Shown: positions 3,067 to 18,372, numbered from the stretch's first letter. The stretch: DNA of 24,000 nt from Acidobacteria bacterium 13_1_20CM_2_55_15 (GCA_001920875.1 MNKP01000024.1:5990-29989), one strand, 5' to 3'. The notes: generated by a model not told the origin, from the sequence alone. A program made the numbers and translations.

Positions 3067-3218
3067 TCAACCTCAGATGTTGCAAGCCCATCGAACTCCG
3101 ACACTTTGAACCCGGTGGTATTGAAGGCAAATCCAAACAATCACAACGGATGGCCCGGGGCGTTAGGTAGAGGCCCCCACGTCTGCGTCGCAGTGCGATT
3201 AAGTTTGCCGAATCACTG

Positions 3219-3719
3219 ATGCGCTCATATAATTCGCGCCACATGTACCACCTGCCGGACCTTTTCTCCATGGGCTGGGGCAAAGTCCGAAGGGTCTTTC
3301 TCATCGCGTTTCGCAAGAAACGCGTAATCGCGAAGCTGGATCGCCGCCGCGGCGCCTGCACCCGGTGCGGTGCGTGCTGCAAGATTCTATTTAAGTGTCC
3401 CGCCTACGACGAGTCGGACGGCAATCCCAAGTGCCTCATCTACGACGATCGTCCAGGCGTTTGCAGTCTCTTCCCGCTCGATGAGAAAGACTTGCGAGAC
3501 AGGAACATCGTAATGCCCGGGACGAAGTGCGGTTTCTATTTCGAGCACGGCTCCCGTTCGGAGGTAGAGCGGCGCGAGACGATGCCGCTCCGGTGGGGAC
3601 CGTCGAAGAACCGAGGCGCGAACAACGGCAAGAGCCGAATCGTGACCGGGACGTTCGCGATCCTCTGGTCGTTCTTCCTCAAGCCATCAGAGAACGCAAA
3701 CCGAAGTGAGAAGCTTTGA
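3219..3719 (+). CDS. YkgJ-family cysteine-cluster protein (CxxCxxCC putative Zn/Fe-chelating domain)
   Basis: CTRCGACC, followed by CLIYDDRPGVCSLFP, matches the CxxCxxCC family (Pfam PF03692). The start is uncertain; in-frame Met codons also occur at residues 9 and 18. Confidence 0.8.
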   Translation: MRSYNSRHMYHLPDLFSMGWGKVRRVFLIAFRKKRVIAKLDRRRGACTRCGACCKILFKCPAYDESDGNPKCLIYDDRPGVCSLFPLDEKDLRDRNIVMPGTKCGFYFEHGSRSEVERRETMPLRWGPSKNRGANNGKSRIVTGTFAILWSFFLKPSENANRSEKL

Positions 3720-3827: not shown

Positions 3828-3887
3828 CCGAGACGACAAAACCGAATTTTGGGGGAACGAGTTCCAAAGTCTCGGATTTCTGATTTT
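3828..3887 (+). promoter_or_regulatory. structured element or weak terminator between the YkgJ-like gene and desaturase 1
   Basis: CCGAGAC (3828-3834) pairs with GTCTCGG (3869-3875). The stem encloses two small hairpins (AAAA..TTTT and GGAA-CGAG-TTCC). A T-rich tail ATTTCTGATTTT follows. Confidence 0.3.
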
Positions 3888-4947
3888 GCGCATCGATGAA
3901 AGTTGGACCCATCCTGTCCTGCCCATATGCGATATAACCTCCACGAGTAAAAACAAGCGTGTCCCTGTGAGTACGTTCGCGGGGAATTCCCGGCGCAACG
4001 TATTGGCTCCACCCCCGGCAGCCTGCATCGCACTCAGGCCTTCGGATAAGCTTGGCCTCCTCCATACTGCCGGGGTTGCAGCGACAACCCTTGCCGGTTT
4101 GGCCATGTCCCGTTTGGGGGGCATTCGTTGGTTCGGCGGTCAGGTTCTCTTGGCTGTGAGCCTCGTGCAGTGGTTCATTTTGCTTCACGAGTGCGGACAT
4201 GAAACGCTGTTTCGGCGCGGCCCGCTGAACACCTTGGTCGGACGCACAGCGGCATTTTTCAGCGGGATCCCGTTTATCTGCTGGAAGCGCGTGCATGCCA
4301 AGCATCATCGCTGGACCGGATGGCAAGATCTGGATCCGACAACCGCTTCACTGGTACCGCGGCCTCTCAGCCCCCTCGAACGATCGGTGATCCACATCAG
4401 TTGGAAATATTGGGTACCGACGTTTTCGGTGCTTTATCGCGTGAATAACTATTGGAATGTGCTTCGCCTGCGCAAGTTGTTCGGCCCAAGCCGGGAGTGG
4501 CGGCAAATGAGGTTGGGCGCAATCGGACTTCTGTCGCTGTATTCCATAACTATTTATCTCGTAGGCGTGCGCGGTGTCATCGAAATGGTTGGGTTGGCTG
4601 TCTTCCTCGCTCTGGTCTGTGAAGACCCGTTGATCCTGAGCCAGCACACGCACATCCCTCAGCACGTCAGCCGTGGGGTCAATGCTCTTCCATTCGCTGC
4701 GTTGGAACAGGAGGAGTTCACTCGTTCGCTACGTTTTCCTGCGTGGGTGTCGAAGTTTGTGCTTTTCAATTTCGATGCGCATGAACTTCATCATATGTAC
4801 CCCTTCGTTCCCGGCTACCACCTTCGGCGAATTCCGTACGACGGTGTGAATGAAATCCATTGGTGGCGATGGCTCACTTTGGCGAAACGGATTCGTGGCG
4901 AAGAATTTCTCTTCCGAAACCAAAATGACACTGGCATCTACATCTAA
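3886..4947 (+). CDS. membrane fatty-acid desaturase family protein (HECGH type)
   Basis: Three His boxes are present: HECGH, HAKHH and HELHH. Hydrophobic segments surround them (Pfam FA_desaturase PF00487 pattern). The start is uncertain: TTG 3886 is the first possible start, and in-frame alternatives are GTG 3967, TTG 4003 and ATG 4105. Confidence 0.85.
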   Translation: MRIDESWTHPVLPICDITSTSKNKRVPVSTFAGNSRRNVLAPPPAACIALRPSDKLGLLHTAGVAATTLAGLAMSRLGGIRWFGGQVLLAVSLVQWFILLHECGHETLFRRGPLNTLVGRTAAFFSGIPFICWKRVHAKHHRWTGWQDLDPTTASLVPRPLSPLERSVIHISWKYWVPTFSVLYRVNNYWNVLRLRKLFGPSREWRQMRLGAIGLLSLYSITIYLVGVRGVIEMVGLAVFLALVCEDPLILSQHTHIPQHVSRGVNALPFAALEQEEFTRSLRFPAWVSKFVLFNFDAHELHHMYPFVPGYHLRRIPYDGVNEIHWWRWLTLAKRIRGEEFLFRNQNDTGIYI

Positions 4948-5542
4948 CTCCGGGAGTGCCGCCGCCGAGCCCTTGGCTTGCGCGGTCTTCATCGTCGTCG
5001 CCTTTATCCTGTCCGGCGCCGCGCATGTGCTGTGGCTGCGGAGCGCGGCTTCTATGCGATTCAGTTTTCCAATCGATTGCGGCCTTTCTCTCCGCGGCAA
5101 GCGTATCTTCGGCGACCACAAGATGTCTCGGGGTTTCGTGGTCATAGTCCCTGCTACAGGCGCGGCATTTCTAATGCTCTATGTCTTCGTTCGCACTGCG
5201 GCTCCCGCCTTTGCTGCACAATTGTGGTCTGCCGCTCCGTGGCAATATGCAGCCTTCGGCCTCTGGGCTGGTTTCGGCTTCATGGCTGGCGAACTGCCGA
5301 ATTCGTTCGTGAAGCGGCGACTGGAGATTCCGCCTGGTCGACTGCCCGCGCATCCCTCAGCTCGATGGGTTTGTTTAGTTGCCGATCGCGTCGATTCGAT
5401 TCTGGGAATGCTGGGCGCATTGAGCGTCGTTGTTTCCGTTCCAACATTGACATGGATCTACGTGATCCTGGTGGGAGCTGGAATCCACTGGACATTTAGC
5501 GTCGTGCTATTTGCATTGGGGGTGAAGGAGAGAATGGCATGA
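4925..5542 (+). CDS. CarS-family (CDP-archaeol synthase-like, DUF46) integral membrane cytidylyltransferase
   Basis: PIDCGLSLRGKRIFGDHKMSRGF matches the CarS D.G...G.r.fG..KT.rG block. GELPNSFVKRRLEI followed by ADRVDS matches the G(D/E)..SF.KRR and D-rich blocks. There are about five hydrophobic helices. I placed the start at internal ATG 4925 (MTLAS...), which overlaps the desaturase end by 23 nt. Confidence 0.75.
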   Translation: MTLASTSNSGSAAAEPLACAVFIVVAFILSGAAHVLWLRSAASMRFSFPIDCGLSLRGKRIFGDHKMSRGFVVIVPATGAAFLMLYVFVRTAAPAFAAQLWSAAPWQYAAFGLWAGFGFMAGELPNSFVKRRLEIPPGRLPAHPSARWVCLVADRVDSILGMLGALSVVVSVPTLTWIYVILVGAGIHWTFSVVLFALGVKERMA

Positions 5543-8160
5543 GCGCGACAGGAGTGTTCTCTCAACGAAGTCTTGTTACCTGCAGTCTCAATAACGCGCG
5601 CGACCTGAGTGAAGTGGGCAACAAGGCTCATAACCTCAGTCGCATGTTGAAGCTCGGACTGAACGTTCCAGCCGGATTTGTGATCACGAAAACCGCCTTT
5701 GACTTGTTTTGCGAGGCCAACGGTATCGATCTCGGGCAGGAGTCGAAGCCGGATTTGCAAGGCGCAATGATCCCGCGAGTGATTTTCGAAGAACTCTTGG
5801 AACTTCGGTACGCATGTCTGCCGTCCGGACCAGTGGTTGTTCGAAGCTCAGGCATTGGTGAGGATGGCATCAACGCTTCGTTCGCCGGTCAATTGGATTC
5901 CATCCTTCACGTCGAAACTGCCGAAGAAATAGAACGCGCCGTCTTGGCGTGTTGGTCCTCTTATTGGAACGAACGCGTGCTTTGTTACCAACGCACCAAA
6001 GGCGTCCGGTTACGAGGGATGGCCATCATCGTCCAGGCGCAAGTGACGTCTTCTCTGTCGGGCGTCCTTTTCACGGAGGCGCCTCAAGGGCGCGGGCAAC
6101 AAGACGAGATCTGCGTCGAGTATTGCGCTGGCTTTGGCGATGCTCTCGTGTCGGGGCTCGTGAATCCCGGCCGCTTTCGAATCTCTAAAACAGACGGCCG
6201 CTATACCATTGATGAATCCACGACAACATTGGATTCGATAGCGGTACAGTTCCCGTTCGAGGGGCAGCAAATTGCGACATTAGCGCGCGCGGCTGACATT
6301 TTGGAGGCCCACTTCGGGTGGCCCCAGGACGTCGAATGGACGATTGACGATTGCGGTGAATTGTTTCTACTACAATCCCGTCCGATCACCGCGCAGGCTT
6401 CTGTATTCCGTTCTCAAATCCTCTGGTCGAATGCCAACGTCAACGAAAACTTTCCTGCTCCCATAACGCCATTTCTTTATTCGATCGCGCGCGAAGGCTA
6501 CTACCACTACTTTCGGAATCTTGCAAAAGCCTTCGGTCTGTCCGCGAGCCGCATCCGGGCGATGGAACATTCTCTTCGGTATCTTGTCGGAGTCCATCAC
6601 GCCCGGATTTACTACAACCTGACGAGCATTCACTCGGTGCTTCGAATGGCGCCATTCGGCGAAGAGTTGGCTGAGTTTTTCAACGACTTCGTTGGCGTGG
6701 ACGCCATGGCCCCGGTCAGACCTGCGCCGAACAGATCGCGGTGGTTCCAGGCATTGGAGCTCTGCAGGATTGGGATCAAGACGACATGGCAGTACGCACT
6801 TCTGGCACGACGCGTCGAGCAATTCGAGCGCTGCGCCGACGATTGGGCACGCACGACAGTCCCGGCGGACCTTCAAAGCCAATCCTTGCTCGCACTCCGT
6901 GACGATCTGCGCCGTTTTATGGAGATCCGCTGTCATCGATGGACGAATGCTTCGCTGGCGGATGCGGCGTCGATGATTTGCTACGGGGTTTTGAAGCTGT
7001 TGTTGCGCAGTACATATCCTGATGCCGGAGAATCCGCGCTTCACAATAATTTGCTGAAAGGGCTTGGCGGCGTTGTCAGTGTGAAGCCTGCGATTGACTT
7101 GTGGGAACTGTCCCGAAAAATTCTGGCCGATCCCGAAACGGCGCGGTGGTTTAGGTATAGCGAAAGCCGCGACCTCATGCGCGCACTCCCGGCGGAACCG
7201 AAACGGCAGTGGCTGTTTGCGGAAGTGAATGACTATCTCGAACGATGGGGATTCCGGTTTTCCGGCGAACTGATGTTGACACAGCCCAGCTTTCAGGAGG
7301 ACCCAGCGCCTCTATTCGACATGTTGAAAACGTACCTAGACGCTAAAGATGCGGCACCGATCGAAGCCGTCCAGCAGCTCGAATACGAACGAATCTCCGC
7401 CACTGCAAACCTTCTCAATGACCTTCGCCGGACGAAGCGAATTCCCAGAGTACCGCGATGTCTTCAGGCGCCGCTTATGCGTCTCGCATTGAACGCAACA
7501 CGGCGGGCTATCCAACTCCGTGAGCGAGTACGGTCAAAGCAGGCGCTCCTTTATAACGGCTGCCGGCGAATTGCGCTCGCAATTGGCAAACAGCTTGTTC
7601 GTGCGGGCACGTTCGTGAATGCCGACGACATCTTTTTCCTGACGTACCAGGAGTTAGATGAATTCCTCACCGGGAACGCGATGTTTCCGGGCATCGTCGC
7701 GGAGACTGTTGCGCTTCGAAAGCGTGCGCATGAAGTGAGTAGCGATTCTTCGGCGCCGGATATCTTCACTTTATCCGAAGGCGCCTACCGGCCAACCGAA
7801 ACGCATGGCAGCGGTGACCGGCCACCTATGCCGTCGGCTATGGACATGTCGGGTATCGGTGCATGCGGTGGGCAAGTGTGTGCGCGAGCGACGGTGCTTG
7901 GAAGCGTGGCGGACGCGCACCTGCTCTCGGTTGGGGACATTCTGGTGACGCGCCAGACTGATCCCGGTTGGGCTCCGGTTTTCTCTTTGATTCGCGGATT
8001 AGTCATCGAAAGGGGCGGCATGCTTTCTCATGGGGCAATCATCGCCAGAGAGTTCGGCCTGCCCTGCGTAGTGGGTGTGAGAAATGCTACATCGGTAATT
8101 CGTCAAGGTTCCTTGCTATCGATCGATGGAGATCGAGGACATGTTCGAATCTTGGATTGA
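5539..8160 (+). CDS. PEP-utilising phosphotransferase with PpsA/rifampicin-phosphotransferase-like architecture (873 aa)
   Basis: The N-terminal PPDK_N/ATP-grasp region has the motifs EVGNKAHNLSRMLKLGLNVPAGFVIT and VVVRSSGIGEDGINASFAGQLDS. The C-terminal swivelling His domain reads TDPGWAPVFSLIRGLVIERGGMLSHGAIIAREFGLPCVVGV. The start overlaps the upstream stop as ATGA, and GAAGGAG lies 8-14 nt upstream. Confidence 0.9.
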   Translation: MSATGVFSQRSLVTCSLNNARDLSEVGNKAHNLSRMLKLGLNVPAGFVITKTAFDLFCEANGIDLGQESKPDLQGAMIPRVIFEELLELRYACLPSGPVVVRSSGIGEDGINASFAGQLDSILHVETAEEIERAVLACWSSYWNERVLCYQRTKGVRLRGMAIIVQAQVTSSLSGVLFTEAPQGRGQQDEICVEYCAGFGDALVSGLVNPGRFRISKTDGRYTIDESTTTLDSIAVQFPFEGQQIATLARAADILEAHFGWPQDVEWTIDDCGELFLLQSRPITAQASVFRSQILWSNANVNENFPAPITPFLYSIAREGYYHYFRNLAKAFGLSASRIRAMEHSLRYLVGVHHARIYYNLTSIHSVLRMAPFGEELAEFFNDFVGVDAMAPVRPAPNRSRWFQALELCRIGIKTTWQYALLARRVEQFERCADDWARTTVPADLQSQSLLALRDDLRRFMEIRCHRWTNASLADAASMICYGVLKLLLRSTYPDAGESALHNNLLKGLGGVVSVKPAIDLWELSRKILADPETARWFRYSESRDLMRALPAEPKRQWLFAEVNDYLERWGFRFSGELMLTQPSFQEDPAPLFDMLKTYLDAKDAAPIEAVQQLEYERISATANLLNDLRRTKRIPRVPRCLQAPLMRLALNATRRAIQLRERVRSKQALLYNGCRRIALAIGKQLVRAGTFVNADDIFFLTYQELDEFLTGNAMFPGIVAETVALRKRAHEVSSDSSAPDIFTLSEGAYRPTETHGSGDRPPMPSAMDMSGIGACGGQVCARATVLGSVADAHLLSVGDILVTRQTDPGWAPVFSLIRGLVIERGGMLSHGAIIAREFGLPCVVGVRNATSVIRQGSLLSIDGDRGHVRILD

Positions 8161-8788
8161 GACTTTTCGGCTTTACCGGCGCGAGCGATTCCCGCTCCGA
8201 ATATTTGCTCTTGTGGCAGTGGTCTTAACCCTTGCAGCTTTCGTGGAAGGCATACCGCATGACTGGTTCGAGGTCCTTCTCTCATGGATGGCGAGCGTAC
8301 TCCTGCTGCTCCAGTTCCGTATCTGGGATGATCTCGGCGACCGGAATCACGACGCCGCTCATCATCCTGACCGTGTCCTTTCGCGTTGCCATCGCGTTTC
8401 TGCATTCTACCTACTTCTTGCCTTCATTGGTTTGTCGAATTGGATCGTTTTGCTACTGCTCGGTCACTCGACGATTCCTTTTCTTCTGGTCTGCGCCGCC
8501 GCATCCTTTTGGTATACGCACGTCGACGGGGCGTTGCGCCGCGGCATTGCGGGACGGCATGTGTTGCTGTTGAAGTATCCGGTATTCGTCTGGCTGATCG
8601 CTCCGTCTCACCCGCCTGAATTGATTTCATCGATGGCTATCGTTTATCTCAGCGGCGCAATTTATGAACTACTCCATGATCGTGAGATTCGCTCGCGTCC
8701 TCAGGCGAGGCTTCTCGTTGCAATTGAGGTCTGTGCGCTCGGCGGCATCGCAGCCGTAGTGCTACGGGTCTTGGGAGAATCACTATGA
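8126..8788 (+). CDS. polytopic membrane protein with a UbiA-type Asp-rich motif (short UbiA-like prenyl/alkyl-transferase candidate)
   Basis: About six hydrophobic helices. FRIWDDLGDRNHD fits the first UbiA-family motif (N/D)DxxDxxxD. I could not identify a clear second DxxxD motif. At 220 aa it is shorter than typical UbiA enzymes. ATG 8141 is an alternative start. Confidence 0.6.
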   Translation: MEIEDMFESWIETFRLYRRERFPLRIFALVAVVLTLAAFVEGIPHDWFEVLLSWMASVLLLLQFRIWDDLGDRNHDAAHHPDRVLSRCHRVSAFYLLLAFIGLSNWIVLLLLGHSTIPFLLVCAAASFWYTHVDGALRRGIAGRHVLLLKYPVFVWLIAPSHPPELISSMAIVYLSGAIYELLHDREIRSRPQARLLVAIEVCALGGIAAVVLRVLGESL

Positions 8789-9753
8789 GTACGGCAACCG
8801 CATTTAAGCCGCTCTTCGAGAATTTTGTTTTTGAGACCGTCTCGTGCTACTCCTGCGGTAGCGCGTCCAGCAAGGAGTTCATCGTTGCTCAGGATGATCT
8901 GACGGGCAAACCGGGAAGCTTCAGGTTCGTTACTTGCCAGGATTGCGGGCTGACGTACCAAAATCCTCGAATCCGAATCGATCGAATCAAATCCTATTAC
9001 GACGACGAGTACATCGCGCACCGCAAGAAGACCGACTGGGGGCGTCTCACCTGGTTTTACAACTGGGTGATGGATAGGCATGACATCGATAAAGATCGAA
9101 TCATCCGCAGGTATGTTGAGCTGGGTCCGCAAAGCGAGATTCTCGATGTGGGCTGCGCCGTAGGCACTTTCCTCCAGAAGATGCGGACGCTCTACGATGC
9201 ACGTGTTTCAGGAGTCGACTTCAAAGACCTTTCGCACAGCTCCACGCTGGACGGAGTCGAGTTTCACTGCGGGCTTTTTTATAACCAGCGTCTCGCGAGC
9301 GGCCGCTTCGATCTTGTAACGATGTGGCACTTCCTCGAACATGATTATGATCCTTTGCGAACGCTCTTGATGGCGAAGAGAGTGTTGAAGCCGGAAGGGC
9401 GCCTCGTGATTGAAGTGCCTCGGCTGGATAGCGTCACTTTCCGTTTATATCGTGAGCGTTGGCCTGGCTTGCAGGCTCCGCAGCACACGGTTCTATTTGA
9501 GAGAAGGACACTACTAAATCTCATCGAAAAATGCGGTCTGGAAGTCGTGGACTATCTCCCTTACGGCGCTTTCCCGCCTTACTTCTACATCTTCGCCGGC
9601 GCAGCATTCAAGATTCTCAAAGGTCGTGGTCTCAATCTTTCGAAGGCCATCGTTCCTTATTTTCTGGGGCAGATTCTCCTGCTGCCCCTGTTGATGGCGG
9701 AGCGCCAACTCAATCTCGCGATGCAAACCGTCATTTGCAGGAGGAAACCATGA
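8785..9753 (+). CDS. class I SAM-dependent methyltransferase with an N-terminal Cys4 zinc ribbon
   Basis: CYSCGS...CQDCGLTYQNP forms the zinc ribbon. ILDVGCAVGTFL is SAM motif I, and LKPEGRLVIEVP is the post-II/III region. The start overlaps the upstream stop as ATGA. Confidence 0.9.
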   Translation: MSTATAFKPLFENFVFETVSCYSCGSASSKEFIVAQDDLTGKPGSFRFVTCQDCGLTYQNPRIRIDRIKSYYDDEYIAHRKKTDWGRLTWFYNWVMDRHDIDKDRIIRRYVELGPQSEILDVGCAVGTFLQKMRTLYDARVSGVDFKDLSHSSTLDGVEFHCGLFYNQRLASGRFDLVTMWHFLEHDYDPLRTLLMAKRVLKPEGRLVIEVPRLDSVTFRLYRERWPGLQAPQHTVLFERRTLLNLIEKCGLEVVDYLPYGAFPPYFYIFAGAAFKILKGRGLNLSKAIVPYFLGQILLLPLLMAERQLNLAMQTVICRRKP

Positions 9754-10571
9754 GCTCTGTAATCAGAGAAGCGAAGGCAAAAACTGGAATGCTGAACAAT
9801 CCTGAAGTACAAGAATCGCTCAGTATCCCTGATTTTCCTCAGCAGCGATGGCGTCCGTATTTTCTATTGGTCGCAAGCAGCGTGCTGTTGACGTTCTGCG
9901 CCGCCGTCATGTTCCTCGTCGCCTTATTTACAGGATTCCAATTGCGGCGGTTCTACTCCGAAGTGTTGGGTCGGCGGCTGGGAAAGGCCGTCCTGACTTT
10001 GTGCGGCGTCCGGATCGAGCAGCATGGACCGGCCCCCCTGCCGAATATTCAAACGATCTTTATCGCGAACCACACGTCTACGCTGGATGTGTTTATCCTT
10101 CTCGCCCTGGGATTGCCTCGAACACGATTCTTCCTCAAACGTAAATACAGGCTGATTCCTCCACTCGCGGTCATCAGTTATCTCGTCGGTGTTTTCTTTA
10201 CGCCGCCCCAAACCAACCGTGCGAAGCGCGTGCGCTGTTTCCAACATGCCGAAGACGTGTTGCGGCGAACCGGCGATTCTGTTTTCTTGAGTCCAGAAGG
10301 AACGCGAATCACCTCGGGACAGATTGGGCCATTCAACAAAGGCGCTTTTCATCTGGCGACGGCCCTGCGGGCGCCCATCGTTCCTATCTTTATCGTCATT
10401 CCAAGGAACATCAACCCCGGCCGGGGATTTGCGGCGCTTCCCGGCGTAGTTCATGTTTACTTTCAATCTCCGATTCCGACGACAGACTGGAAGCTTAGTG
10501 ATCTGGATAGAAACAAGACTGCCGTTCGAGACTACTTTGCTGGATTGAACGTGACCTTAGGACTGAGATGA
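9750..10571 (+). CDS. lysophospholipid / 1-acyl-sn-glycerol-3-phosphate acyltransferase (PlsC/AGPAT family)
   Basis: NHTSTLD is the HX4D motif, FLSPEGTR is the PEGTR motif, and APIVPIFI is also present. There is an N-terminal TM helix. I used internal ATG 9750 of track ORF 9531..10571; it has GGAGGA 4 nt upstream and overlaps the methyltransferase stop as ATGA. Confidence 0.9.
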   Translation: MSSVIREAKAKTGMLNNPEVQESLSIPDFPQQRWRPYFLLVASSVLLTFCAAVMFLVALFTGFQLRRFYSEVLGRRLGKAVLTLCGVRIEQHGPAPLPNIQTIFIANHTSTLDVFILLALGLPRTRFFLKRKYRLIPPLAVISYLVGVFFTPPQTNRAKRVRCFQHAEDVLRRTGDSVFLSPEGTRITSGQIGPFNKGAFHLATALRAPIVPIFIVIPRNINPGRGFAALPGVVHVYFQSPIPTTDWKLSDLDRNKTAVRDYFAGLNVTLGLR

Positions 10572-12328
10572 TTCCAAACCAGTTTCGAACCTTGGCCGAT
10601 GTGCTTCGGTATCGCACTGAAACGCAGGCATTCGAGGCCGCCTATACATTTTTGAATGACGGTGAAGCCGAAGGCCGCACCATCACGTATCGTGATCTCG
10701 ATTTTCAAAGCCGAGCGCTTGCAGTAATGTTGCGTGACTGGCGCATACAGCGTCCGTTGCTGGTCTATCCTCCTGGGCTCGATTTCATCGTGTCTTTCTT
10801 CGCCTGCATTTATGCCCGCATCACACCTGTGCCTGCAGGTCTCGCTCATATCATGCGCCTCGGCCGCTCCTTGACACGCCTTGCCGCCGTGGCGCGTGAT
10901 GCAGACGCGGATGCCGTTCTCAGTGTTACGCGAGTCATTGACCGAGCGTTCACTGATCCGGATTTCATGAATCGATCGCAGGAGCTCGGTCGAATGCGAT
11001 GGCTCGCGACCGATCGCTGTGATGAAGCTCTGGGCGCATGTTATCAAGATGCTTTGCTGCCATCCGACATGCCGGCGTTCATACAGTACACGTCCGGTTC
11101 GACATCGATTCCAAAAGGAGTCGTCGTCACTCATCGAAACCTGCTTCACAATTTGAGTTACTGCAACGAGGTGGAGGAGAACGGCCGCGATACGATCTCC
11201 GTCTCATGGCTGCCTCACAGCCACGATATGGGCTTGATCGAAGCTATCCTGCTCCCGACTTTCGCGGGCTATCGCGCCTACCTCATGTCTCCCGCATCAT
11301 TTCTCCGCCGGCCGGCGCGGTGGCTCGAGGCTATTACACGCTTTCGCGCGACCAACAGCGGTGGGCCCAATTTCGCTTTCGATCTGTGCGTTGAAAAGAT
11401 TTCCGCCGAAGAACAGGAGAATCTAGATCTCACCTCCTGGCGCGTCGCTTACAACGGCTCGGAGACGATTCGGAGTGAGACTTTATTGCGGTTTCGCCAA
11501 AGATTCGAACGCTCCGGATTCCGCTGGAACGCATTTTATCCGGTTTATGGGCTGGCTGAATCGACACTCCTGGTTTCGAGCGGTCATGCGGCAGATGTGC
11601 CAGTGGTTCGGGAACTCGATGCAGAGGCGTTAGGTCGAGGCATCGTGGCAGCTCCGCAACACCGCACTGCCAAGACTATCAGCGTCGTCGCGAGCGGCAG
11701 GACACAGTCCCATACTCGAATCGTCATCGCGGATCCGGAAACACTTGTCAAGTGTGGCGCAAATGAAGTCGGCGAAATCTGGATCGCGGGACCCAGCGTT
11801 GCCAATGGTTACTGGCAGAAGCCGGCCGAAACCGAGGCGGCGTTTCATGCCTATTTCGAGGACAGCCAGGATGGGCCATTCTTACGAACGGGCGATCTCG
11901 GCTTCTTGTCGGATGGACAGCTCTTTGTGACCGGGCGGATCAAAGACGTTATAAATATTCGCGGATTCAAACATTATCCGCAAGACATTGAGCACACTGT
12001 TAGTCAGAGTCCTGCCGCCATCTTAATGAGTGGCTGTGCCGCATTCGCCGTCGATGGAGATGGAACCGAGCAACTCGCCGTTGTCATCGAGGTCCTTCCG
12101 AAGTTGTCTCAGGATTTCGACGATTGGAGCGATCAGGCCATAACCGCTATCCAGAGTGCGGTAACGGAACGGCACGGAATAAGGATCCAGTCGCTGGCGC
12201 TTGCGCCTTACGGATCGATTCCGAAAACGACGAGCGGAAAACTTCAACGGCAACTGTGCCGCAGGTGGTTCATCGACGGTAGCCTGCAGACGGTTCGCAT
12301 CTGGAGTCACGACGGAGAACGAGCATGA
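10568..12328 (+). CDS. fatty acyl-AMP ligase (FAAL-type adenylating enzyme)
   Basis: FIQYTSGSTSIPKGVVVTHRNLLHN is the AMP-binding core. VSWLPHSHDMGLI is a motif typical of FAALs such as FadD32. GDLGF...GRIKD is also present. The start overlaps the upstream stop as ATGA. Confidence 0.9.
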   Translation: MIPNQFRTLADVLRYRTETQAFEAAYTFLNDGEAEGRTITYRDLDFQSRALAVMLRDWRIQRPLLVYPPGLDFIVSFFACIYARITPVPAGLAHIMRLGRSLTRLAAVARDADADAVLSVTRVIDRAFTDPDFMNRSQELGRMRWLATDRCDEALGACYQDALLPSDMPAFIQYTSGSTSIPKGVVVTHRNLLHNLSYCNEVEENGRDTISVSWLPHSHDMGLIEAILLPTFAGYRAYLMSPASFLRRPARWLEAITRFRATNSGGPNFAFDLCVEKISAEEQENLDLTSWRVAYNGSETIRSETLLRFRQRFERSGFRWNAFYPVYGLAESTLLVSSGHAADVPVVRELDAEALGRGIVAAPQHRTAKTISVVASGRTQSHTRIVIADPETLVKCGANEVGEIWIAGPSVANGYWQKPAETEAAFHAYFEDSQDGPFLRTGDLGFLSDGQLFVTGRIKDVINIRGFKHYPQDIEHTVSQSPAAILMSGCAAFAVDGDGTEQLAVVIEVLPKLSQDFDDWSDQAITAIQSAVTERHGIRIQSLALAPYGSIPKTTSGKLQRQLCRRWFIDGSLQTVRIWSHDGERA

Positions 12329-14997
12329 GTTCCGCTATAACCGTTGCATCAGGCCAGATAGAAGAATTCCTTCAGCATCGTGTCGCGGAGATCGCTGGAG
12401 TGACGCCATCCAGCGTCAGCTTGAGCACGGCCTTATCGCGCCTCGGAGTGGATTCGCTCGGTATGCTTCACCTGATCGAGGGCATCGAAAGCGAATTGGG
12501 AACAGAAATTCCAAACGCGATCTGCTTGGACGGTCTCACCATTCAGTCGCTTGCAGAAGTTTTGGCTGCTTGTGTACCGGGCGCACGGCGCGCAACCGTT
12601 AATCTGGCCCAAGAGATGGCGGCCGACAGCAAACTTCCGGAGGACATTCGCCCTGCGCCAGGCCCAGCCGTGGCGCTGCCTCGATCGATTCTGCTAACCG
12701 GTGCGACGGGCTTTCTTGGGGCCTACTTGCTACGTTCGCTTCTGCGAAACACGAAAGCGCAGGTTGTTTGCCTGGTCAGGCCAGACAAAGACGACGGTCA
12801 AACCAGGGTTCGGCGGAATCTCGAGCGCTACGGAATCTGGGATGACGGATTCGACCATCGCATTGCGATACTCGAGGCAGACATTACGCAGCCGCATTTG
12901 GGCCTGCCACCTTCTTCATTTGACGCCCTGGCAATCACCATCGACGTCGTGTTTCACGCAGCGGCGGCGGTGAATTGGGTGCACTCTTATACGCGGCTGC
13001 GGCACACGAACGTGCTGGCCCTTCGCGAGTTGTTGGGCTTGGCCTGCCGCCACAGGTCAAAACCCTTTCATCTCATTTCGACTCTGGCTGTGTGCTACTC
13101 GATGACAGGTTCGCGAGAGGTTTCAGAGACTGACGATGTGTTTGCAGATGTGGCTGGAATCCATCTGGGATATGCGCAAAGCAAATGCGTTGCGGAGTCC
13201 CTCGTGAAAACCGCAGCGCAGCGCGGCTTGCCGGTATCGATCGTTCGGCCCGCTCTTATCTCAGGCAACAGCGTTACGGGCATCTCCAATACCGAGGACT
13301 TCGTTTCGAAGTTTATCAGGGCGTGCGTACAAATGGGCGCGGCCCCGGATCTTGACTGGCTCCTGGACTTTTTGCCCGTCGACTTTGCGGCGGAAGCGAT
13401 TACGCGCCTTGTATTGAACGGAAATTTGGAGCCATTTCGAGTTTTCCATTTAGCGAATCCAAAGCTCAGACATTGGCGCGAGTTGATATTATGGATGAAC
13501 CTGTTTGGATATCGCGTCGAACTGCTTCACTACCAGGATTGGCTGCATCGGCTCAATGCCGATGTACGTAATGATAGGGAACATCCGTTACGAGACCTTC
13601 TCCCATTTTTTCTACATCGTCCTGCAGGACAGAAGGGACTTTATCTGCCTCAGTTGTACGAGGAATCCCGGCGGCGCAAAGCACGGTTCGATGCCACGCG
13701 GGAGCTGCTGGAGCGCGAAGATCTGACGTGTCCGCAATTGTCCACTCGTTTACTGGATCGTTACTTCGAATCCTACATTGATCGTAAGTTTCTGCCGCCA
13801 GTCGAAAGGTCCCATCGAACGGACCCTCCTGCCGCTGATGAACATCTGCAATTCGACGCGTGCTTCTTTAACTCTGTGATTGGAAACCACGAGGTGACCC
13901 GCGCGCGACCGCTTGAATTCTCCGGTGGTCATAGCGTGATCGGCGAACTGACATCGTGGAAGTACGGCCACTCGATCGGGCTGCACGGCTATCGTCTCGA
14001 ATTTGGGGACGGGCAACGTGAGCGTGACGTGATCGTGAAGGTGAAAGCGCGCGATAAGGAAGTAACGGCCGTCGGGCAAACCTTAGCAGCATTGTGCAGT
14101 CCCGCTCTCGGCTGCGCCTACGAGCGTTTCTCCGATTGTCTAGGCTTGACCGGGTGTGATACTCGCGAACTCTCTGTCTACCAGCAGGATGATGCTCGTT
14201 TCCGTCGATTCACTCCGGGGTTTTACGGTGGACGATCGGATCATGCGCGAACGGTTCTGGTCCTGGAAAAGCTGTCGCGGTTGGAAATGATGGACTCGGT
14301 CGAGTCTGTACACACTTGGCCTGCCAAATACATCGAAGCGGCCATTCAAGGAATCGCGCGGCTCCACGCCATTTGGTACGGAGTGCAACTGGGGCGTGCC
14401 GTGAACCAATCGTGGTCTAATCAGGTTCTCCATCGAAAACAGTTTGCGGAGGCCAGGGATCTTTGGGTTGCCCTGGCGGACCACGCCTGCCCGATTTTTT
14501 CGCCTTGGATAGGTCCCGAATGCGGCGCGATACAATCCGTTCTCATCGAGCGCCTGGATGAGTTCTGGCGGCTTCATGAAGGCATGTCGCATACCTTGAT
14601 CCATAATGATTTCAATCCTCGAAACCTCGGATTCCGACGCTCAGGCAGCGAATTGAGCCTTTGCCTCTACGATTGGGAACTCGCGACGGTCGATCTTCCG
14701 CAACATGACCTTGCCGAGCTCCTGTGCTTCGTACTTGGAGCAGACGTGCAACGGTCCGATCTCCTTCGTTACATCGAAATGCACCGGACGGCATTACAAG
14801 ACGCGACGGCACAACAGATTGATGACACTTCTTGGGTGCTCGGCTTTTGCCTATCGCTGTATGACCTGATGATCAATCGGCTGCCAGCTTATGCAATGAT
14901 TCACCGTTTTAATGAGCAGCGTTTTCTCGAACGTGTAATTCGTACATGGAAGGGAATATTCGATGTCGTATCCAGCACGATATATTCGCCTTTGTAA
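12325..14997 (+). CDS. tri-domain fusion: acyl carrier protein + thioester reductase (NAD-binding SDR) + APH/choline-kinase-like phosphotransferase
   Basis: The ACP domain has LGVDSLGM, with the phosphopantetheine Ser at residue 44. The reductase domain has LLTGATGFLGAYLL from residue 123 and YAQSK (YxxxK). The C-terminal kinase fold has LIHNDFNPRN (HxDxxxxN, His at nt 14602) and LYDWE. The start overlaps the FAAL stop as ATGA. Confidence 0.9.
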   Translation: MSSAITVASGQIEEFLQHRVAEIAGVTPSSVSLSTALSRLGVDSLGMLHLIEGIESELGTEIPNAICLDGLTIQSLAEVLAACVPGARRATVNLAQEMAADSKLPEDIRPAPGPAVALPRSILLTGATGFLGAYLLRSLLRNTKAQVVCLVRPDKDDGQTRVRRNLERYGIWDDGFDHRIAILEADITQPHLGLPPSSFDALAITIDVVFHAAAAVNWVHSYTRLRHTNVLALRELLGLACRHRSKPFHLISTLAVCYSMTGSREVSETDDVFADVAGIHLGYAQSKCVAESLVKTAAQRGLPVSIVRPALISGNSVTGISNTEDFVSKFIRACVQMGAAPDLDWLLDFLPVDFAAEAITRLVLNGNLEPFRVFHLANPKLRHWRELILWMNLFGYRVELLHYQDWLHRLNADVRNDREHPLRDLLPFFLHRPAGQKGLYLPQLYEESRRRKARFDATRELLEREDLTCPQLSTRLLDRYFESYIDRKFLPPVERSHRTDPPAADEHLQFDACFFNSVIGNHEVTRARPLEFSGGHSVIGELTSWKYGHSIGLHGYRLEFGDGQRERDVIVKVKARDKEVTAVGQTLAALCSPALGCAYERFSDCLGLTGCDTRELSVYQQDDARFRRFTPGFYGGRSDHARTVLVLEKLSRLEMMDSVESVHTWPAKYIEAAIQGIARLHAIWYGVQLGRAVNQSWSNQVLHRKQFAEARDLWVALADHACPIFSPWIGPECGAIQSVLIERLDEFWRLHEGMSHTLIHNDFNPRNLGFRRSGSELSLCLYDWELATVDLPQHDLAELLCFVLGADVQRSDLLRYIEMHRTALQDATAQQIDDTSWVLGFCLSLYDLMINRLPAYAMIHRFNEQRFLERVIRTWKGIFDVVSSTIYSPL

Positions 14998-15580
14998 TTT
15001 GCTGACGTACATCTCGCTATTGTGCAGCCTGCTGGCTGTCTTCGCCGCGCGGGAATACCGAAGCTGGGAGGCCGCCGGTTTATTGCTCGCGGTTTCCGCG
15101 CTCGCCGATACCTTCGATGGAAAATTCGCTCTGCTCTTCCAACGGACCGAGAACGAGAGCGAATTCGGCGCACAACTCGACAGTCTCGTTGACGCCGTTT
15201 CGTTTGGAATCGTGCCTGTCGTCTGCTTGCAGTCGCTCGTCCAATTCGATTCGGCCTCGGCTCGATTCGAGTTGCTGGTGGCTGCGTTTGTGTACGTTCT
15301 GTGCGCGGTGACCCGGCTTGGCTATTACAATCTACACCATCACGCGCAGTCCGGATTCATCGGACTGCCGACAACTCTAGCTGCTCTTTTGTGGTCGACA
15401 CTGTTCCTCACACATCCATCCGCGATACCCGTTGCTCTGATCTCTGTCCTCGTCGGCGGGGCGATGGTTTCGCCGTTGACCGTTTCCAGGCCGCGAGGTA
15501 TTGCAATGGGAGCGTACATGCTCTGGTTTCTGGTTGTATTTATTTCGTACACATACCGGTTCGTCGCCGGAATCTACTGA
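14963..15580 (+). CDS. CDP-alcohol phosphatidyltransferase family protein (small, PssA/archaetidylserine-synthase-like, divergent motif)
   Basis: DTFDGKFAL-x11-GAQLDSLVDAV resembles DGxxARx8GxxxDxxxD, but the Arg is replaced by Leu and the spacer is 11 residues. There are about six hydrophobic helices. It overlaps the previous gene by 35 nt. Confidence 0.8.
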   Translation: MSYPARYIRLCNLLTYISLLCSLLAVFAAREYRSWEAAGLLLAVSALADTFDGKFALLFQRTENESEFGAQLDSLVDAVSFGIVPVVCLQSLVQFDSASARFELLVAAFVYVLCAVTRLGYYNLHHHAQSGFIGLPTTLAALLWSTLFLTHPSAIPVALISVLVGGAMVSPLTVSRPRGIAMGAYMLWFLVVFISYTYRFVAGIY

Positions 15581-15583
15581 CCG

Positions 15584-16651
15584 ATGCGCGATAGCAGTGT
15601 TCGGGAGCTTCGAGCAGATCTGCAAAAACGAGGCTGTTACGAAAAGCACACGGCGCGGATCCTCTTCGACCTGAGCATCAGTGCTCTAATGGCGGCTGGT
15701 GGACTTGTGGTGTATCTCGCGGCTTCGGGATCAGTCGCGCGCACATGTGGTCTGATCGTGTGGACTGCAGGCAGCATCGGAATCGGCACTAACACACACA
15801 ATTCCTCTCATTATGCGACCGCCAAGAAACGCTGGGTAAACGAATTGCTGACCTATATCGGCTATCCTGTCTATTTTGGCCTGTCGGCGACCTACTGGTG
15901 GCACAAACATGTGCTTGTCCACCATAGCGCCCCGAATGTAATAGGCGTTGATGGCGACGCGGATCTGTCTCCATGGTTTGCAACTACAACGGATGAAGTT
16001 CGGCTATCGTCGGGAATGCGGAGGTTTTTCTATGTGCACCTCCAGCGATTCGTTTTTCCTGTCGCTATTTCCCTGACATTATTCAGCCAACAAATTGCCG
16101 GATACATCCATCTGGCTCGATCGCTTCGCAGCAAAAAGCGTCAGCTAGCGCACGGCGTCGACCTTGCCGCCCTGTTAGCGCACGTCGTCCTCACCCTGGG
16201 CATTCCGATGTTCTTCTTTAGTCCTTCGAACGTCATCGCATTCTACGTCCTACGCAATGCTCTCATGTCGTACGCGATGTTCTCGGTATTTGCTCCTGCG
16301 CACTTTCTTTCGGAAGCGTCACGGCTTGACAAGAACGTCGCACAGTTCGACTATCTGCTCACGCTGACTGCGACGACATTGAATTTCCGAATGGGACGCC
16401 TGGGAAGACTGTTGTGTTCCGGACTTGAATACCAGATCGAGCATCATCTTCTTCCCGATATTAGCTATGTCCACTATCCGGCTATCAGTAATTTAGTGGA
16501 GCAGTTCTGTAAGAGTCACGCGTTCCCCTACCGGCGATATCGATGGGAGTTCGCGTTGTGGCGTTCGCTATCCGCGGTTAGCAACCCATGCGAGATTGTG
16601 CGTGACGCGAGTGTCCTTCATTGGCCGGTAGGTGCCAAAGGCGCTGGCTAG
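15584..16651 (+). CDS. membrane fatty-acid desaturase family protein with a Q-type third His box (front-end-desaturase-like)
   Basis: His boxes are HNSSH, HKHVLVHH and QIEHH(LLP). A QxxHH third box is the hallmark of front-end and sphingolipid-type desaturases. There is no cytochrome b5 domain. It starts 3 nt after the upstream stop. Confidence 0.9.
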   Translation: MRDSSVRELRADLQKRGCYEKHTARILFDLSISALMAAGGLVVYLAASGSVARTCGLIVWTAGSIGIGTNTHNSSHYATAKKRWVNELLTYIGYPVYFGLSATYWWHKHVLVHHSAPNVIGVDGDADLSPWFATTTDEVRLSSGMRRFFYVHLQRFVFPVAISLTLFSQQIAGYIHLARSLRSKKRQLAHGVDLAALLAHVVLTLGIPMFFFSPSNVIAFYVLRNALMSYAMFSVFAPAHFLSEASRLDKNVAQFDYLLTLTATTLNFRMGRLGRLLCSGLEYQIEHHLLPDISYVHYPAISNLVEQFCKSHAFPYRRYRWEFALWRSLSAVSNPCEIVRDASVLHWPVGAKGAG

Positions 16652-17136
16652 TCGGGGAGAATCTTCTGGGAGCAGTTAATACCCGACATGACGTCTGTAC
16701 CAAAAAGTTCGACATAATTGACCTTTGGCAAGAGAAATGACGAGTCGATGTTGGCGAAGATCTTCTGCAGATACGCGCGGTGTCCATCAATTGTAGTCTC
16801 GGCGCGGACCTGACCGTCCTCTTCATATACTTCGATTTCGACTCGCTTCTGAGAGACCACTGTCAGCACATAGTGACTGGGCGATTTGGTCCGCAGGTGT
16901 ATGCCATAAGCTCTTGTTCTTTCGAGAAAATTTAAGGCCTGGCGCTTGCCATTAGCTGAGCCCATCGTCCAGTACACGATAACCGGCTCGCGCGGATCCA
17001 AGTGGCCGCTGCCATCGAGATGCGCGTCGTAGTGCACCACGTTACCGTTAGTTGTCCGCTCGATAATGAACAACTGTTTGTCTGGGGCTCGCATCAGAAT
17101 TGGCGATGCTAGAAGCAGGATTATTTTGAATCTCAT
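16648..17136 (-). CDS. secreted beta-rich hypothetical protein, DUF4833-like (family recalled from memory, unverified)
   Basis: The signal peptide is MRFKIILLLASPILMRAP. LFIIERTTNGNVVHYDAHL...VIVYWTM...ALNFLERTRAYG resembles DUF4833 proteins as I remember them. Its stop shares the tetranucleotide CTAG (16648-16651) with the convergent desaturase stop. Confidence 0.75.
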   Translation of the reverse strand: MRFKIILLLASPILMRAPDKQLFIIERTTNGNVVHYDAHLDGSGHLDPREPVIVYWTMGSANGKRQALNFLERTRAYGIHLRTKSPSHYVLTVVSQKRVEIEVYEEDGQVRAETTIDGHRAYLQKIFANIDSSFLLPKVNYVELFGTDVMSGINCSQKILPD

Positions 17137-17502: not shown

Positions 17503-18372
17503 TCACGAAACTTGGGCGAGACGTTGCATGTATTGGACATGAAGCCGCGGATGAAGCGCCTTCAATTGTTTTCGCGCATCGATGAGCTCGCCGTCGGAGC
17601 AAAACGGCTTGTTTTCGCTGACGATCCAATAGAGACAAAAGCGGCGCGACGATGGCGACTCGATAAAGGCCGCGCCGAATTTCCGCTTGAATCCGTCGAA
17701 TTCGCCGCGCGATGAGAACCGCGCGGGCGGCAATTCCCCGGCGGCACATAATTCAGGGAAAGCCCATTCGGCTTCATCTGCGGAGCGCAATCGGGCGAGG
17801 AAGCGGGGATCTTCGATCAAAGCCCACCTGTCCTCCGGCAATCCCAACAGGAACGACCAGTGGTAATTGGAATGCGCCACAGGTCCATGTCCGAGCCGGA
17901 AATCGCAGTTGCCGAGCTGAAGCCGAACTTTCCAGCCATCGCCAATCTGCCGGATCTCGTTTTCATAACGCCGTCGCGCATTCCGCGGCTGCTCAGCCAA
18001 GAGATAAAAGTCTCCGAGCGAGCGGCCCGCGGCCGTGCGCAGTTCCTCAAACAACTTCCGATTCGAGGCCAGAAGCCGCGAAAAGAAGTTGCGCCTTAGC
18101 GATGCTGTCCAGGATCTGGAAACATCGAGCGTGTTCAGCCGCGCTTCCAGTTTTTGCCAGGCTCCGTAGCCGGAGTCTAGATCCATCGGTTTAGCCGCCA
18201 GCTTGGATCCCGCACGCACCAATTCCGGTTCCCAGATGAGTTTGGCTTCCGGCCAGAAGCGATGAAATTCTTCCAGCCGTCGCAACGCGCTGTGAAAATC
18301 CAGACGCGCGATCGCATCTTGCAGTTCGGTTCTCGCCATGACTTCCGGTTCGAAAAGCAAACCCTGCTGCAT
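17503..18372 (-). CDS. hypothetical protein (289 aa)
   Basis: Long ORF. Its ATG directly abuts the upstream TAG, and GGAGG lies 4 nt upstream, which suggests translational coupling. I recognise no motif. Confidence 0.8.
   Translation of the reverse strand: MQQGLLFEPEVMARTELQDAIARLDFHSALRRLEEFHRFWPEAKLIWEPELVRAGSKLAAKPMDLDSGYGAWQKLEARLNTLDVSRSWTASLRRNFFSRLLASNRKLFEELRTAAGRSLGDFYLLAEQPRNARRRYENEIRQIGDGWKVRLQLGNCDFRLGHGPVAHSNYHWSFLLGLPEDRWALIEDPRFLARLRSADEAEWAFPELCAAGELPPARFSSRGEFDGFKRKFGAAFIESPSSRRFCLYWIVSENKPFCSDGELIDARKQLKALHPRLHVQYMQRLAQVS

Follow-up and report, generated by a model that had tools for sequence, protein, structure and literature searches.

Organization of the Gene Cluster

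We analyzed a 24,000-nucleotide stretch of DNA from the uncultured soil Acidobacterium 13_1_20CM_2_55_15 (GCA_001920875.1, MNKP01000024.1:5990-29989; hereafter the window, with positions counted from its first letter), in which ten co-directional open reading frames (ORFs) occupy positions 3886-16651 of the + strand and, with high confidence, make up one conserved lipid-biosynthetic operon (Table 1). The genes encode two desaturase-family proteins (Des1 and Des2), a CarS-like CTP-transferase, a dikinase, a UbiA-like membrane protein, a methyltransferase (MT), an acyltransferase (AT), a fatty acyl-AMP ligase (FAAL), a protein that joins an acyl carrier protein (ACP) domain to a thioester reductase (TR) and an APH-type kinase (ACP-TR-APH), and a CDP-alcohol phosphatidyltransferase. 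According to the ORF listing and a direct reading of the junctions, neighboring genes overlap or, at one of the nine junctions, are separated by 3 nt. A sequence-only reading had counted eleven consecutive genes on this strand; the consecutive run stands, and the count has to be lowered to ten, since the nine junctions listed in that reading themselves imply ten genes, the cluster holds no additional Pfam-bearing ORF, and independent gene calls in a relative that is 85-94% identical (locus L017) return the same ten genes.

Table 1. Genes of the operon and its flanks in the window, in order of position (GA, Pfam gathering threshold).
Gene	Position	Strand	Assignment	Match
495-aa ORF	1341-2828	+		no Pfam match
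CxxCxxCC protein	3219-3719	+	directly 5' of Des1	PF03692, 21.6 bits, just under GA
Des1	3886-4947	+	membrane fatty-acid desaturase/hydroxylase family; first gene of the conserved core	PF00487, 82 bits
CarS-like	4925-5542 (alternative GTG 4895)	+	integral membrane CTP-transferase (CDP-archaeol synthase family)	PF01864, 41.9 bits (GA 22)
Dikinase	5539-8160	+	Rph/PpsA-type; ATP-grasp, central substrate domain, swivel phospho-His	PPDK_N 172.6 bits, PEP-utilizers 87 bits
UbiA-like	8141-8788 (alternative ATG 8126)	+	truncated membrane transferase of predicted UbiA fold, about 7 helices, 215-220 aa	UbiA, 27.7 bits
Methyltransferase (MT)	8785-9753	+	class I, S-adenosylmethionine-dependent	Methyltransf_23, 77.6 bits
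Acyltransferase (AT)	9750-10571	+	AGPAT/PlsC family, N-terminal membrane anchor	PF01553, 71.8 bits
FAAL	10568-12328	+	fatty acyl-AMP ligase	AMP-binding 189.7 bits, AMP-dom_DIP2-like
ACP-TR-APH	12325-14997	+	ACP, thioester reductase, APH-type small-molecule kinase	PP-binding, NAD_binding_4 219 bits, APH/EcKL
CDP-alcohol transferase	14963-15580	+	CDP-alcohol phosphatidyltransferase, PssA/archaetidylserine-synthase-like; accessory	PF01066, 55 bits
Des2	15584-16651	+	second desaturase-family protein, other subtype	PF00487, 83.3 bits
DUF4833 gene	16648-17136	-	converges on Des2, 4-nt tail-to-tail overlap	DUF4833, 105.6 bits
289-aa ORF	17503-18372	-		no Pfam match
DUF1186 + SEC-C protein	18373-19254	-		Pfam
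Amidase	21182-22891	+		Pfam
PAP2 phosphatase	23266-23913	-	lipid-phosphate phosphatase type; 6.6 kb from the cluster, opposite strand

The ATGA start/stop overlaps previously proposed at 5539, 8785, 9750, 10568 and 12325 are exact in the sequence, as is the 3-nt gap at 15580/15584 (TGA CCG ATG). Three longer overlaps are present as described, with an exact extent that hangs on the choice of start: the CarS-like gene begins at ATG 4925 or GTG 4895 against a Des1 stop at 4947; the UbiA-like gene begins at 8126 or, likelier, at the ATG at 8141, which GAGGA precedes, against a dikinase stop at 8160; and the CDP-alcohol transferase gene begins at 14963 against a preceding stop at 14997, an overlap of 35 nt that is identical in L017. 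GGAG-like Shine-Dalgarno motifs lie 6-10 nt 5' of most starts. The start of Des1 is uncertain (candidates are TTG 3886, GTG 3967 and TTG 4003), as the alignment with distant orthologues sets in only at about residue 40. A simple consensus scan yielded fewer promoter- and terminator-like sites than shuffled sequence did, with no convincing promoter or terminator internal to the block, and the ten genes are probably read as one transcript. Synteny across phyla reinforces this reading: more than 20 independent loci from several phyla share the gene order at 30-68% protein identity, so the arrangement is far beyond chance, and this synteny together with the independent gene calls rules out chance adjacency and mis-called ORFs.

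Enzymes Encoded by the Cluster

A Pfam scan recovered all ten family assignments of the sequence-only reading, the UbiA-like protein alone scoring below the gathering threshold (27.7 against 34.2 bits for PF01040). All NCBIfam equivalog models were matched below their cut-offs, and the generic thioester reductase domain model TIGR01746 was the sole pass (319 bits, ACP-TR-APH), so that no function can be transferred by orthology. In orthologue alignments the catalytic motifs of all cluster enzymes are conserved.

The genes expected to handle the fatty chain are the most readily classified. The FAAL matches the NCBIfam fatty-acid--AMP ligase families at 330-412 bits, and the acyltransferase, in which the HxxxxD and SPEG motifs are conserved, scores 62 bits against AGP_acyltrn, under the cut-off. 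In the ACP-TR-APH protein the motifs DSL, GATGFLG, YxxxK, HNDFNPRN and DWE are conserved, and the top PDB match of its reductase domain is MxaA (4u7w, E 4e-77), a four-electron, alcohol-forming terminal reductase. The protein has 732 homologue clusters; an exact-sequence look-up of it and of protein P0077 returned no record. A profile of the APH domain built from 15 orthologues matched only ACAD11 8v3v (E 2e-5), 9o56 and 3dxp in the PDB. These three share with the window domain the signature HxD[FY]xxxN...DWE[LM][AS]TxGxPxxDL, and 9o56 carries the motifs HYDYK...DWE known from the ACAD10 kinase of C. thermarum. Kinases of the ACAD10/11 type phosphorylate 4-hydroxyacyl-CoAs (PMC12440821) and, several prokaryotic homologues included, 1-O-alkylglycerols (a recent preprint, PMC13596139). 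Because its sole PDB relatives are of this type, some of them phosphorylating 1-O-alkylglycerols, the APH domain might by analogy act on an alkylglycerol after ether formation and not on the free fatty alcohol.

The domain architecture of this signature protein is plastic, which is useful for construct design and for probing which activities have to be coupled: four-domain FAAL-ACP-TR-APH fusions of 1481-1486 aa occur (P0123, P0143, P0147 and P0162, the last at L028:10001-14446), and at L029:18113-20105 the TR (287 aa) and the APH domain (362 aa) lie on separate genes.

The CarS-like protein has 480 homologue clusters, and PF01864 is found on all 120 among the matches listed. Its motifs GDxK, ELPNSFxKR and DxxD are invariant in 31 homologues, and its AlphaFold2 model (pLDDT 90) has a single significant PDB match, ApCarS 5guf (E 2e-4, TM 0.70). 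Sequence and model thus point to a PF01864 family member with the CarS fold; a CdsA-type enzyme is ruled out, as 5guf alone was matched and CdsA was not retrieved. Against the NCBIfam model for CDP-archaeol synthase (NF003114) the protein reaches 52.3 of the 148 bits set as cut-off, and with a score so far below the equivalog level digeranylgeranylglyceryl phosphate (DGGGP) is not to be inferred as its substrate.

For the UbiA-like protein the assignment draws on family, motif and structure comparisons. A full-library profile search gathered 375 representatives at E<=1e-30, and the family comes in forms of 190 aa, 215-220 aa and 275-296 aa. Searched individually, 9 of 29 members hit PF01040 (E<=0.01, best 7e-10), and hits to any other family did not recur. 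Searched against the PDB by sequence, the best match was DGGGP synthase at E 1.1, which is not significant. An alignment of 49 collected homologues contains the invariant or nearly invariant motifs FRLWDDLxDRxxDRxxHPDRVL, KYP and YExLHD. Its first motif, DDLxDRxxD (D68, D69, D72 and D76 near-invariant), aligns to NDIFDIEID of the M. jannaschii DGGGP synthase, and YExLHD (E181, H184, D185) stands in place of the second Asp-rich DxxxD, an equivalence that is inferred; the correspondence of the conserved D/E, R and K residues to the UbiA Asp-rich motifs was read from the motif alignment. The AlphaFold2 model, made from the homologue alignment, has a pLDDT of 93.7, and the top 11 Foldseek matches in the PDB are all UbiA-superfamily membrane enzymes (probability 0.98-1.00, TMq 0.48-0.62), in the order DGGGP synthase 6m31/7bpu, ApUbiA, the membrane phosphoribosyltransferase (PRTase) 8j8k, AfUbiA and UBIAD1. 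The protein is thus predicted to adopt the UbiA fold, and the fold and the motifs together rule out an unrelated membrane protein.

The dikinase lies between these two membrane proteins. It has the full three-domain architecture, its catalytic His motif GGMLSHGAI is conserved, and a Rph_4th domain is recorded for its orthologues. The top PDB match, Listeria rifampin phosphotransferase 5fbs/5hv1 (E 2e-62), is a full-length relative, and an uncharacterized "PEP synthase" (phosphoenolpyruvate synthase) subfamily of PRK06241 type heads its NCBIfam matches at 485 bits. Scores against the functionally defined models are far lower than their cut-offs: 299 against 999 bits for Rph, 228 against 598 for PpsA, and 301-320 against 1300-1350 for PigC/RedH.

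The CDP-alcohol transferase matches archaetidylserine synthase (85 bits) and PssA (84 bits) best in NCBIfam, both under the cut-off. In the motif D(x)2DG(x)2AR(x)nG(x)3D(x)3D all Asp and Gly residues are present and the Arg is replaced by Leu (residue 57, CTG, 15131-15133). This residue is Arg in 11 of 11 orthologues and is encoded by CGG in the 92%-identical relatives L017-L019, from which the window's CTG differs by a single G-to-T change. Judged from the sequence, the substitution may weaken or inactivate the window enzyme; alternatively, it may stem from the assembly or from strain variation.

Among the tailoring enzymes, the methyltransferase is the most conserved protein of the cluster (57-68% identity across phyla). 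Motif I (LDVGCxxGTFL) and the ribbon DDLTGxPG are conserved, as are an N-terminal CxxC...CxxC zinc-ribbon-like element and a hydrophobic C-terminal tail, and the last two suggest a membrane substrate. A profile search of the PDB returned generic methyltransferases only, narrowing the assignment no further than class I, membrane-associated. Des1 retains its His boxes HECGH / HxxHH / HxxHH in 14 orthologues and has weak NCBIfam matches only; the boxes of Des2 read HxxxH / HxxxHH / QxxHH. In Pfam both proteins match PF00487 alone and neither falls in the TMEM189-type family (CarF/PEDS1, plasmanylethanolamine desaturase), and a functional analogy to CarF/PEDS1 is conceivable.

Conservation and Variants Across Phyla

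A scan of species-representative genomes for the ACP-TR-APH protein gave 16 loci, and more contigs were reached through homologues. The 16 loci belong to Planctomycetota (Pirellula and relatives), to Vicinamibacterales and Marinacidobacterales of the Acidobacteriota, and to metagenome-assembled genomes (MAGs) of a Myxococcaceae and a gammaproteobacterium. Where the flanking sequence suffices, tblastn finds the core order Des1-CarS-dikinase-UbiA-MT-AT-FAAL-ACP/TR/APH in more than 20 loci of Acidobacteriota, Planctomycetota and Myxococcota, and these bear out the neighborhood co-occurrence of CarS, FAAL and ACP-TR-APH that the sequence-only reading had raised. Homologues of cluster proteins are named from Gemmatimonadota and Proteobacteria too, which brings the distribution to at least five bacterial phyla. 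Among the Acidobacteriota, the carriers include Vicinamibacterales, Pyrinomonadaceae and the soil lineage of the window, and a window protein clusters at 90% identity with proteins annotated as "hypothetical" in MAGs of soil Acidobacteria (13_1_40CM_56_16, 13_1_20CM_2_55_15 and DMG17).

The conserved core comprises eight of the ten genes, the CDP-alcohol transferase being mobile or absent and Des2 lineage-specific. The CDP-alcohol transferase gene lies 5' of Des1 in Pirellula-type loci and at the 3' end in Vicinamibacterales loci, and it is absent from a Pyrinomonadaceae MAG (L027) and from L028. An orthologue of Des2 is found in the near relatives L017-L019 only, as befits a lineage-specific add-on. 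Des1 adjoins the CarS-like gene in all loci, in divergent orientation in L008 and L028, and the acyltransferase gene is shifted downstream in L023-25.

A variant arrangement occurs at L030:463-10648 (GCA_020060215.1, JAGVAP010000121.1), where an aminotransferase, an Rph-like dikinase, a CDP-alcohol transferase, a CarS-like protein, a second Rph-like dikinase and a UbiA-like protein are encoded in this order, with no FAAL, TR, APH, AT, MT or desaturase. The aminotransferase (953 aa, class III) has PigE as its best NCBIfam match and a C-terminal region of about 490 aa with no domain match. Because this locus keeps CarS, dikinase and UbiA apart from the fatty-alcohol genes, the triad is a separable module, here possibly fed by a different substrate. 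L030 is also the sole variant that lacks the APH domain, and it has two dikinases.

Some loci have individual irregularities, and two show signs of disruption. At L010:4810-9914 about 1.3 kb separates two blocks of FAAL homology, and another gap of about 2 kb follows the AT. In L024 (3623-6417, 18833-20158) gene calling splits the dikinase into ORFs of 580 and 351 aa, as opposed to one gene of 919 aa in L023 and L025, and a DDE transposase is inserted nearby. In L026 (1-870), a planctomycete-type genome with PSCyt/PSD genes near, a gene for a B12-binding radical SAM protein lies directly 5' of Des1; such a gene was not seen at the other loci. B12-binding radical SAM enzymes include lipid methylases and tail-coupling enzymes.

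Neighboring Genes in the Window

Base composition is even across the window, and neither a Rfam family nor a tRNA was found in it; an origin from a mobile element or plasmid was rejected, there being no composition anomaly and no plasmid homologue of the CarS-like protein. Des2, the DUF4833 gene and the upstream CxxCxxCC gene were considered as core parts and set aside, since they accompany the cluster in near relatives only. The pairing of DUF4833 with Des2 is kept in L017-L019 and not in distant loci, and a full-text literature search found no mention of DUF4833. The CxxCxxCC protein is 89% identical in near relatives, has a fragmentary homologue just 3' of the cluster in L015 (13438-13560), and may serve the cluster as an accessory metal or redox protein or have no connection with it; the sole strong sigma-70-like match of the region (3205-3233) spans the start codon of its gene. 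The remaining flanking genes (those for the 495-aa and 289-aa proteins, the DUF1186/SEC-C protein, the amidase and the PAP2 phosphatase) are not conserved beside the cluster elsewhere.

A Putative Route to Alkyl Ether Phospholipids

The tight junctions, the core order shared by so many loci, the conserved catalytic motifs and the FAAL-ACP-TR-APH fusions indicate that the cluster is a functional unit. An ether-linked product is the outcome we lean towards, because the cluster unites a set of domains equivalent to the myxobacterial ether-lipid enzyme ElbD, an alcohol-type reductase, a UbiA fold resembling DGGGP synthase, a CarS family member and an APH domain related to alkylglycerol kinases. 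We put at about even chances an overall scheme in which the cluster, a horizontally widespread operon, is dedicated to an unusual membrane phospholipid, namely an alkyl (ether) glycerophospholipid. The enzyme classes are those established above; the substrates and the order of the steps we infer as follows. The FAAL would adenylate a fatty acid and load it onto the ACP domain, from which the thioester reductase would release a fatty aldehyde or alcohol. The APH domain and the Rph/PpsA-type dikinase would supply phosphate activation, either with both kinases acting on the alcohol to give an alkyl phosphate and then an alkyl diphosphate, or with the dikinase activating the alcohol and the APH domain later phosphorylating an alkylglycerol. 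The truncated UbiA-fold enzyme would use the diphosphate-activated donor to form an ether C-O bond to glycerol or glycerol-phosphate, the AGPAT would acylate the remaining hydroxyl, and the CarS-like enzyme would turn this phosphatidate analogue into a CDP derivative, to which serine would be added by the PssA-like transferase or, in loci that lack one, by a housekeeping enzyme. The chains or the head group may be tailored by Des1 and the membrane-associated methyltransferase, joined in this lineage by Des2.

The presence of two ATP-dependent phosphotransferases beside a transferase of diphosphate-using type suggests an alkyl diphosphate donor, and L030, which lacks the APH domain and carries two dikinases by its CarS-like, UbiA-like and CDP-alcohol transferase genes, is consistent with a need for two phosphorylations. 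Formation of the ether bond from an alkyl diphosphate by the UbiA-like enzyme is nonetheless a tentative proposal, more doubtful than the ether product itself, and a number of points weigh against it and against the scheme around it. Compared with canonical enzymes the window protein is missing the final two helices (about 7 as opposed to 9), and it matches known folds only modestly (Foldseek E 6e-3, TM 0.57-0.62). Characterized UbiA enzymes ionize allylic prenyl diphosphates or phosphoribosyl pyrophosphate (PRPP) via stabilized cations. As UbiA enzymes use allylic or anomeric diphosphates that give such cations, a saturated primary alkyl diphosphate would be a poor substrate and an SN2-like displacement would be needed; substitution of this kind at a primary carbon has a precedent in methionine adenosyltransferase, and we know of none within the UbiA superfamily. 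No gene of the cluster obviously makes an allylic alcohol. The triad of L030 exists without any fatty-alcohol module, Des1 and the methyltransferase, the two best-conserved tailoring genes, have no explained role in the scheme, and Pfam identified no gene in the window that would supply glycerol-phosphate or define its stereochemistry. All functionally defined NCBIfam models were matched below cut-off, the function proposed for each cluster member rests on sequence and structural models, and no cultured organism of known lipids is linked to the cluster.

Part of the same evidence can be accommodated by readings in which the UbiA-like enzyme forms no alkyl ether. In a glycerol-free lipid, a fatty alcohol or diol would be phosphorylated by the APH domain, converted to a CDP-alkanol by the CarS-like enzyme and coupled to serine, with the AGPAT acylating a chain hydroxyl; a 1,2- or 1,3-diol would need a desaturase-family enzyme to act as hydroxylase, and the product would be an alkyl-phospho-head-group or diol lipid free of ether bonds. 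Long-chain diol lipids occur in some bacteria, for instance Thermomicrobium, PF00487 includes hydroxylases (weak NCBIfam matches to GntB and CrtR hydroxylases were obtained here), the fusion of kinase and reductase suggests that the kinase acts on the reductase product, and the CarS-like score lies far under the CDP-archaeol synthase cut-off. We nevertheless regard this product as improbable, as it gives neither the UbiA-fold enzyme nor the dikinase a function, although these are the two most tightly coupled core genes and always lie beside CarS, and a plain alkyl phosphate lacks the hydroxyl acceptor that an AGPAT needs. A low probability also attaches to the proposal that an ElbD-type ether or ester lipid module has been joined to an unrelated polyprenyl or glycosyl-carrier function, the triad acting on a polyprenyl phosphate or, like the membrane PRTase Rv3806c, on another diphosphate donor such as PRPP, and decorating the fatty-alcohol phosphate or a head group in place of forming an alkyl ether. 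This would fit the membrane PRTase 8j8k/8j8j among the top structural matches of the UbiA-like model, the occurrence of the triad in L030 beside a PigE-like aminotransferase and away from FAAL, TR, AT, MT and Des, and the fact that in the ElbD pathway, too, the ether-forming step is unresolved. However, the conserved cluster genes include no synthase for prenyl diphosphate or PRPP and no glycosyltransferase, and the strict co-linearity of the triad with FAAL, TR and AT in more than 20 loci favors a single pathway.

Two other alternatives concern the bond formed or the purpose of the product. A vinyl ether of plasmalogen type would arise if the reductase halted at the aldehyde, the dikinase phosphorylated the enol or hemiacetal oxygen (as PEP synthase acts on pyruvate and PigC/RedH on a formyl group) and a glycerol hydroxyl displaced the phosphate; an alk-1-enyl ether would then form with no need for the O2-dependent PEDS1/CarF step. 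The conversion of an enol-phosphate and an alcohol to a vinyl ether has precedents in MurA and EPSP synthase. The dikinase scores PigC/RedH ligases (301-320 bits) about equal to Rph (299 bits), and an ElbD-dependent i15:0 aldehyde has been reported in M. xanthus (PMC9131029). Yet the reductase is nearest to the four-electron, alcohol-forming MxaA, no MurA-like enzyme is encoded and the UbiA fold indicates a diphosphate donor, the APH domain has no clear role, and the mechanism is purely speculative; we consider it highly improbable. A specialized metabolite such as a signal or defense lipid, made by chemistry near that of the favored scheme as a minor, regulated product, would be in keeping with the patchy cross-phylum distribution, which resembles horizontal transfer, with FAAL-ACP-TR as a typical loading and release module of natural products, and with the treatment of elb-like clusters of sponge symbionts as biosynthetic gene clusters (preprint 10.64898/2026.06.23.733905). 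It is quite improbable in our view, since the CarS-like enzyme, the CDP-alcohol transferase and the AGPAT are of core phospholipid-assembly types and the conserved core includes no transporter, regulator, polyketide synthase or nonribosomal peptide synthetase.

In its strongest form, the alkyl ether scheme amounts to a non-isoprenoid route of archaeal logic in several bacterial phyla, soil Acidobacteria included, which starts from ordinary fatty acids, in which a minimal UbiA-fold enzyme moves a non-allylic alkyl group from an alkyl diphosphate to a glycerol or glycerol-phosphate acceptor and no ester-to-ether reduction takes place. We hold this form to be rather unlikely; if true, it would be the first non-isoprenoid use of the triad of DGGGP synthase, CarS and archaetidylserine synthase, with a new ether-bond-forming reaction, and the alkyl glycerol ethers attributed to uncultured soil Acidobacteria, perhaps with branched-tetraether precursors among them, could have the operon as a candidate source. 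Bacterial ether lipids serve as environmental and palaeoclimate markers, with producers and enzymes that are only partly known. The formation of the alkyl ether bond in aerobic bacteria is unresolved, even for the ElbD pathway (PMC9131029). With three "archaeal" lipid enzymes represented by bacterial homologues in a fatty-acid setting, the operon bears on the lipid-divide debate; it offers a concrete hypothesis that can be tested enzyme by enzyme, and the ACP-TR-APH, short UbiA-like and bacterial CarS-like genes can serve as markers in metagenome surveys of potential ether-lipid producers.

Comparison With Known Systems

A full-text literature search turned up no published description of this gene set, in agreement with the earlier statement that no characterized pathway has it, and an already characterized cluster was set aside on the same ground. 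Among the systems nearest to it is the elb operon of M. xanthus (ElbA-E; MIBiG BGC0000871). ElbD combines a FAR-like reductase, an acyl-CoA-synthetase-like domain, an ACP and an AGPAT-like domain, and is genetically required for the alkyl ether lipids of M. xanthus, the ether-forming step of the pathway itself being unresolved (PMC9131029). The domain set drawn on in the sequence-only comparison with ElbD agrees with this description and is here spread across three genes. Ligase, ACP, NAD(P)H-dependent thioester or acyl reductase and AGPAT are thus common to both systems, and an alkyl glycerolipid would be expected from each. Split ElbD variants are known (preprint 10.64898/2026.06.23.733905); this preprint, which treats the elb-like clusters of sponge symbionts noted above, does not mention CarS, UbiA or PEP-utilizing genes. 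In contrast to elb, the window has no single ElbD, since the AT (9750-10571), FAAL (10568-12328) and ACP-TR-APH (12325-14997) genes follow one another in a different order, and the APH kinase is fused to the reductase. Genes corresponding to elbB (HAD-like), elbC and elbE/elbA (NAD-dependent epimerase/dehydratase) are absent, Pfam having found no HAD or stand-alone epimerase gene among the cluster and flanking ORFs, while Des1, the CarS-like protein, the dikinase, the UbiA-like protein and the methyltransferase have no elb counterpart.

The late archaeal pathway (DGGGP synthase, CarS, archaetidylserine synthase) has homologues of all three of its families in the cluster. The sequence-only reading had spoken of archaeal-type late lipid genes, and this holds, the top matches being DGGGP synthase 6m31/7bpu, ApCarS 5guf and archaetidylserine synthase/PssA. 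The chain is supplied by a fatty-acid reduction module here and by the isoprenoid route there; no glycerol-1-phosphate dehydrogenase, geranylgeranylglyceryl phosphate synthase or geranylgeranyl diphosphate synthase was found among the ORFs of the 24-kb window or the conserved neighbors of related loci. The truncated UbiA-like protein falls short of the Pfam threshold, no score reaches the archaeal equivalog cut-offs, and the host is a bacterium. Collectively, the gene content sets the operon apart from both elb clusters and the archaeal pathway.

For the two phosphotransferases the comparison is with single enzymes. The ACAD10/11 kinases are the sole PDB relatives of the window kinase domain and share its signature; the similarity is weak (27 bits, E 2e-5) and confined to the catalytic core, the window domain is fused to ACP-TR and not to an acyl-CoA dehydrogenase or HAD phosphatase, and it reads HNDFN where the ACAD10/11 type reads HYDxK. 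Rph and the PEP-synthase-like PigC/RedH enzymes use the beta-phosphate of ATP to activate a small hydrophobic molecule at an oxygen function. The window dikinase has their full three-domain architecture and swivel His; unlike them, it scores about one third of the equivalog cut-offs and is always encoded between two membrane lipid enzymes.

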